Shown here: in pieces, positions 1-340 of the stretch
How positions within the stretch are numbered: position 1 is the stretch's first letter
How the letters are laid out: each line of letters opens with the position of its first letter
Sequence record: AH003495.2
Source: a phage
Direction: 5' to 3' (one strand)
DNA: 340 nt
Position numbers and translations under genes: made by a program
Notes under the pieces: model-generated
What the model saw: only the letters and a program-made list of their open reading frames with translations
What the model was told of the DNA's origin: nothing
Database searches by the model: none

Positions 1-111
1 GGGGATACGTGCCCCTCCACCGCCACCCGCACCCCCTACCAAAATTATTTCCGTCTGTCAATACCCCCTGCATCCAATAGGCCCGAACTATCACAAACGG
101 AAAAGCGATAG
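1..111. repeat. Left arm of a perfect 111-bp inverted repeat (partner at 230-340)
   Basis: I reverse-complemented 230-340 by hand in 10-nt blocks and it equals 1-111 with 0 mismatches. Identity stops at position 112: left 112-120 is cccaaaaca, whereas the reverse complement of right 221-229 is gaataaaat (3 of 9 matches). The arm runs to the window edge, so its true outer extent is unknown. Confidence 0.95.
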
Positions 112-120
112 CCCAAAACA

Positions 121-220
121 NNNNNNNNNNNNNNNNNNNNNNNNNNNNNNNNNNNNNNNNNNNNNNNNNNNNNNNNNNNNNNNNNNNNNNNNNNNNNNNN
201 NNNNNNNNNNNNNNNNNNNN
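121..220. other. Run of 100 undetermined bases (N); assembly or scaffold gap of unknown true length and content
   Basis: Positions 121-220 are all n. A length of exactly 100 is the conventional placeholder for a gap of unknown size, so the real distance between the flanks cannot be inferred. Confidence 0.95.
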
Positions 221-229
221 ATTTTATTC

Positions 230-340
230 CTATCGCTTTTCCGTTTGTGATAGTTCGGGCCTATTGGATGCAGGGGGTATTGACAGACGGAAATAATTTT
301 GGTAGGGGGTGCGGGTGGCGGTGGAGGGGCACGTATCCCC
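230..340. repeat. Right arm of a perfect 111-bp inverted repeat (partner at 1-111)
   Basis: Exact reverse complement of 1-111. The inner boundary is at 229/230 (attttattc | ctatcgc...). The arm runs to the window edge at 340, so the repeat may continue beyond the window. Confidence 0.95.

Follow-up and report, generated by a model that had tools for sequence, protein, structure and literature searches.

The 340-nt stretch of phage DNA analysed here (the window) almost certainly consists of the two 120-nt ends of the genome of Enterobacteria phage PR4, or of a near-identical alphatectivirus, and the perfect 111-bp inverted repeat that it carries is the inverted terminal repeat (ITR) of that genome, whose two copies are taken to be protein-primed origins of replication. 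The element is not a new one: the ITR of the PR4/PRD1 family is already known. PRD1-family ITRs are a textbook example of protein-primed replication origins, and their sequences are said to date from the 1980s, from the work of Savilahti and Bamford in 1986.

The window is made up of 120 nt of sequence, a run of exactly 100 N (121–220) and a further 120 nt of sequence. The exact inverted repeat reported in the initial annotation was confirmed by direct recomputation: positions 230–340 are the exact reverse complement of positions 1–111, with 0 mismatches over 111 bp. Identity ends at position 111, and beyond it positions 112–115 and 119–120 mismatch the complement of positions 221–229. A repeat search of the window returned a single inverted pair (1–170/171–340, 96%), a figure in which the N run is counted. 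Given the base composition of the arm, the match probability per base is 0.287, which puts the probability of 111 consecutive matches at ~10^-60; when the 120-mers were shuffled 200 times, the mean length of the longest run in common was 7.2 nt. None of the shuffles exceeded a run of 11 nt, and a chance origin of the 111-bp repeat is excluded. The composition of the left arm is strongly skewed on the top strand (46 C vs. 19 G). Positions 1–40 form a C-rich block of 70–80% GC, which is followed at positions 41–50 by an A/T-rich stretch (AAAATTATTT).

The source of the window was identified by megablast searches of 50,697 phage records with each half as the query. Matches were obtained to PRD1-like tectiviruses only (29 records per half), and the best match for both halves was Enterobacteria phage PR4 (Alphatectivirus PR4; AY848686/NC_007451), whose linear genome is 14,954 bp long. 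Positions 221–340 of the window are identical to PR4 14835–14954 at 120/120 bases, and positions 1–120 are identical to PR4 1–120 at 119/120, the sole difference being at position 115; the total is thus 239 of 240 bases, and by homology the start and end of the window coincide exactly with the start and end of the PR4 genome. The left ITR (1–111, plus strand), predicted to hold the left protein-primed replication origin, matches PR4 1–111 at 111/111 positions. The right ITR (230–340, minus strand), which would hold the right origin, is identical to PR4 14844–14954. Inside the arms, the unique non-coding region of the left end is represented by its first nine bases (112–120, plus strand) and that of the right end by its last nine (221–229, plus strand; identical to PR4 14835–14843). 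The inner boundary of the repeat and the flanks beyond it are the same in PR4 and in the window; the differences are base 115, which is A in the window and G in PR4, and the interior, which in the window is N. The repeat is therefore an ITR of this family in homology (100% identity to the PR4 ITR and 87–98% to the ITRs of other PRD1-type members), in position, as judged by homology (inverted arms at both ends of a ~15-kb linear dsDNA genome), and in form (111 bp, 0 mismatches, and the left and right flanks of the family beyond it).

Mapping of the two halves to the PR4 ends also shows what the N run stands for. The corresponding interior of PR4 measures 14,714 bp, which by homology places the arms ~14.7 kb apart, and the description of the N run as an unresolved gap between nearby arms does not survive this comparison. 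We infer that the run (121–220, without strand) is a placeholder of conventional length for an interior of ~14.7 kb; the 120 + 100 + 120 layout suggests either two end segments joined by a conventional gap or a construct made from the ends of a record. In PR4, the interior carries the genes for terminal protein P8 and DNA polymerase P1 (234–2678) and for capsid, packaging, delivery and lysis functions, and P12 and P19, both ssDNA-binding proteins, are encoded leftward on the minus strand near the right end. In relatives, the left non-coding stretch precedes the P8 and P1 genes and constitutes the early promoter region, and the right one is situated upstream of genes XII and XIX, the leftward early genes for the ssDNA-binding proteins.

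The anatomy of the repeat was compared across nine terminally complete records (PR4, PRD1, PR5, L17, PR3, two of PR772, Erwinia phage RH-42-1 and Burkholderia phage vB_Bco-CSP1) by aligning the left end of each genome with the reverse complement of its right end. All nine have an ITR of 110–111 bp with a common inner boundary, a length that leaves out the extra T residues preceding GGGG in the AY441783 and PR3 records; the 110-bp form of the PRD1-type ITR results from a 1-nt deletion at window position 32. Extra T residues stand outside GGGG at both ends of two of the records (two in PR772 AY441783 and one in PR3) and are found in none of the others; they are probably end-determination artefacts of the deposits. 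Beyond the ITR, the relatives carry distinct left (CCCAAAACA..) and right (GAATAAAAT..) flanks, and the window carries both: the first nine bases of the left-specific flank (CCCAAAACACTAAG..) and of the right-specific flank (GAATAAAATTTTGA..) are present, the former at positions 112–120 and the latter at 221–229, both in agreement with all relatives. The homologous stretch is annotated accordingly in several deposits. In PRD1 M22161, positions 1–110 are labelled "5' inverted terminal repeat" and positions 111–232 "promoter region", followed by the coding sequences of the terminal protein and the DNA polymerase; in PR772 AY441783 and CSP1 the stretch is annotated as a terminal repeat or repeat_region.

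Variation within the ITR is unevenly distributed. Among 10 genome-end pairs, the invariant blocks are 1–18, 33–38, 47–53, 56–63, 77–90 and 92–111, and of the 26 variable columns all but one (position 91) fall within 19–76. The left arm can thus be divided on the plus strand into a terminal invariant block that begins 5'-GGGG (1–18), a variable central part (19–76), in which the two arms of each genome co-vary, and a conserved inner part (77–111), in which the one exception to invariance is position 91, where the right arms of L17 and PR3 differ. PRD1, PR772, PR5, L17, PR3, RH-42-1 and vB_Bco-CSP1 share with the window the extreme-end position, the 110–111-bp length and the flanks, together with the invariant terminal 18 bp from GGGG and the invariant inner ~35 bp; they differ from it chiefly in the region 19–76, where the differences behind their 87–98% identity are concentrated. 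Similarity in the ITR is decoupled from whole-genome similarity in PRD1-type phages: over the whole genome PR4 shares ~93% identity with PR772 and likewise with PRD1, whereas its ITR is 98.2% identical to that of PR772, 90.1% to that of PRD1 and 87.4% to those of L17, PR3 and PR5. This pattern may reflect recombinational exchange of ends, or differing rates of change in the centre of the ITR.

The one base that separates the window from PR4 lies four bases beyond the repeat boundary and is thus outside the repeat. Position 115 is A in the window and G in every available copy of PR4 (AY848686, NC_007451 and the IMG/VR copy, which is identical to the GenBank record); A is also found in PRD1, PR5, L17, PR3, CSP1, RH-42-1 and PR772 AY441783. 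Since the two PR772 records disagree with each other at this same position, sequencing or isolate variation in the left early promoter region is the simplest reading of the PR4 difference, and the window may come from an older or independent PR4 sequence or from a very close relative. A PR4-type junction with A at position 115 gave 0 matches in IMG/VR and 0 in JGI metagenomes. The base could also be read as a sign that the same ITRs belong here to another replicon, either a distinct PR4-like alphatectivirus or a deletion (mini-replicon) derivative with PR4 ends: position 115 differs from all PR4 copies and carries the base of most relatives, and ITR similarity that does not track genome similarity means that an identical ITR is no guarantee of an identical interior. 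With 239/240 bases identical to PR4, however, and a single difference that is within the range of re-sequencing, as the PR772 records illustrate, such a replicon is an unlikely source. That the window stems from an undescribed alphatectivirus that received its PR4-type ITRs by recombination, or from a mini or defective genome, with position 115 as the trace of that history, is a highly improbable conjecture.

Other explanations dispense with phage ends altogether. Viewed in isolation, identical arms with an N run between them are what would be expected of a foldback chimera, or of a scaffold in which a gap links a contig to the reverse complement of itself, and both were put forward in the initial annotation as possible artefacts. 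A self-reverse-complement join would, however, be complementary up to the gap. In the window, each arm ends 9 nt before the N run, at the boundary usual in the family, and the innermost nine bases of the two halves, which are non-complementary, match genuine left and right flanks; these inner flanks refute the artefact. The 110–111-bp repeat, its boundary and its distinct flanks also recur at both ends of nine separately deposited related records, against which an artefactual origin is scarcely credible. Transposons, insertion sequences and invertible segments in a bacterial chromosome or plasmid are likewise typically bounded by long inverted repeats, and with an interior of N the window by itself fits this description. 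The arm, however, had 0 matches in 5,426 complete E. coli genomes and 0 in 72,556 PLSDB plasmids, and its invariant 32-mer had 0 matches in 185,579 GTDB species genomes (one genome per species); every match that was obtained falls at a physical terminus of a linear tectivirus genome of ~14.9 kb, no transposase is encoded in the homologous interiors, and the window ends exactly at GGGG and CCCC, with nothing outside the arms. A mobile or invertible segment, which had also been proposed, is exceedingly improbable on this evidence. Folded as ssDNA, a single arm gave a dG of −9.3 kcal/mol (z = −0.72 vs. shuffles), and a structured arm was rejected because this fold is no better than those of the shuffles; the arms being ~14.7 kb apart as well, the earlier option of a hairpin- or cruciform-forming palindrome does not hold either. 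Of the real origins considered at the outset, the replicon end is the one that stands, the arms being ITRs of a linear phage at the PR4 termini.

The only open reading frames in the window are three of 23 aa, two of which have the same sequence owing to the repeat; they are chance occurrences, and nothing in the window is coding. An Rfam scan of both strands of the window (E ≤ 10) gave no match, and a scan for promoter and terminator consensus sequences found none within the window. At the left end of PR4 the only σ70-like site is at positions 145–174, outside the window, and at the right end of PR4 no σ70-like site was found. Within each arm there is also an 11-nt inverted repeat that is 91% complementary (48–58/93–103, mirrored at 238–248/283–293: TTTCCGTCTGT/ACAAACGGAAA). 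L17 and PR3 carry changes at positions 54–55 without compensation in this internal repeat, and it is probably a chance match.

Metagenomic occurrences of the ITR are few. In IMG/VR, the invariant ITR 32-mer was found only in PR4 itself and in one 14.4-kb contig of wastewater type (IMGVR_UViG_3300015214_001290), and the search of JGI metagenomes returned the same contig (Ga0172382_10008414; 14,388 bp), which is thus the sole metagenomic carrier of the 32-mer. This contig lacks its left end, and its right ITR is truncated, with PR772/RH-42-1-like variants. Exact matches to the 32-mer are very rare among IMG/VR and JGI contigs, a rarity due at least in part to the loss of ITR ends during assembly.

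In function, the ends of the window can be compared with those of PRD1-type phages, whose ITRs are the protein-primed replication origins that have been studied by experiment. The first nucleotide incorporated in PRD1 is dGMP, which is templated by the 4th nucleotide of 3'-CCCC (passage in PMC5175343, citing Caldentey et al., 1992, 1993), and the terminal bases are recovered by three sliding-back steps (same passage of PMC5175343). The terminal 20 bp of the PRD1 ITR are required for the origin (excerpt of PMC4150772, citing Yoo and Ito, 1991), which agrees with the invariant block 1–18 found here, and during elongation one strand is displaced, the ssDNA being coated by P12 (PMC11886824). As far as can be read from its letters, the window has the makings of such origins: GGGG at 1–4, CCCC at 337–340 and the invariant block at 1–18. 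By analogy with PRD1, from whose literature both the initiation chemistry and the origin requirement are taken, each ITR end would act as a protein-primed origin, the terminal ~20 bp of which would be recognised by a heterodimer of P8 and the family-B polymerase P1. The 4th C of 3'-CCCC would template the joining of dGMP to the terminal protein, and a stepwise slide back would restore the end; strand displacement would then copy the genome, with P12 and P19 covering the displaced strands, and because both ends have the same sequence, the same machinery could start at either. The residue that links the terminal protein to the DNA is reportedly a tyrosine of P8, Tyr-190, in work by Shiue, Hsieh and Ito from 1991.

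The ITRs of adenovirus and the ends of phi29 are similar in that the repeats carry origins, a terminal protein primes synthesis, and a panhandle model has been proposed for the displaced strands; initiation likewise takes place internally on a reiterated 3' end, and a slide or jump back then follows. They differ in having no sequence relationship to the window. The ITR of phi29 is only 6 bp long (passage in PMC4974454), and the reiteration in adenovirus is 3'-GTAGTA, with a jumping-back mechanism (PMC5175343).

Perfect or near-perfect identity of the two arms within a genome is characteristic of the family. Across the 10 genome-end pairs, both arms of a genome carry the same base in 258/260 variable cells, and the sole discordance is at ITR position 91 of L17 and PR3, where the left arm has C and the complement of the right arm has A. 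Since 26 columns vary between genomes and the arms of each are concordant at this level, the two ITRs of a genome evolve in concert. It had been proposed that perfect identity implies either a recent duplication or gene conversion, or an artefact; the concordant left–right variation brings gene conversion near to the accepted view, and the artefact is discarded. Mechanistically, a displaced single strand could form a panhandle by pairing of its ITRs, and a duplex origin would thereby be recreated; the panhandle would let one end be copied from the other, so that the two arms would remain the same even as the ITR changes from phage to phage. Panhandles of PRD1 ITRs and restoration of homology through them have been proposed (section of PMC11886824, citing Savilahti and Bamford, 1993), and the same source, in a passage that also cites adenovirus work, describes the panhandle as a popular model for which direct demonstration of the intermediates is lacking (PMC11886824).

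A departure from arm identity is seen in PRDemerald (PP412831), a short-read assembly with truncated ends, in which the arms are non-identical, with ~10 differing positions between ITR positions 39 and 73. Its left arm is PRD1-like and its right arm is of another type. It is equally possible that PRDemerald is a natural genome with non-identical ITRs and that it is an assembly artefact; if natural, its differing arms mean that homogenisation of the ends is not absolute. Chimeric PRD1 genomes with dissimilar ends were reportedly viable and fairly stable in experiments of Savilahti and Bamford from 1993, in which genomes that had regained identical ends are also said to have been recovered.

The identification is of use mainly for triage: a perfect, long inverted repeat around a run of N, which has the look of an artefact, is here the pair of genuine and well-understood ends of a genome. 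As a discovery it has little value, PRD1-family ITRs having long been known. The presence of ITRs of this sort is a signature that a linear viral genome is complete.
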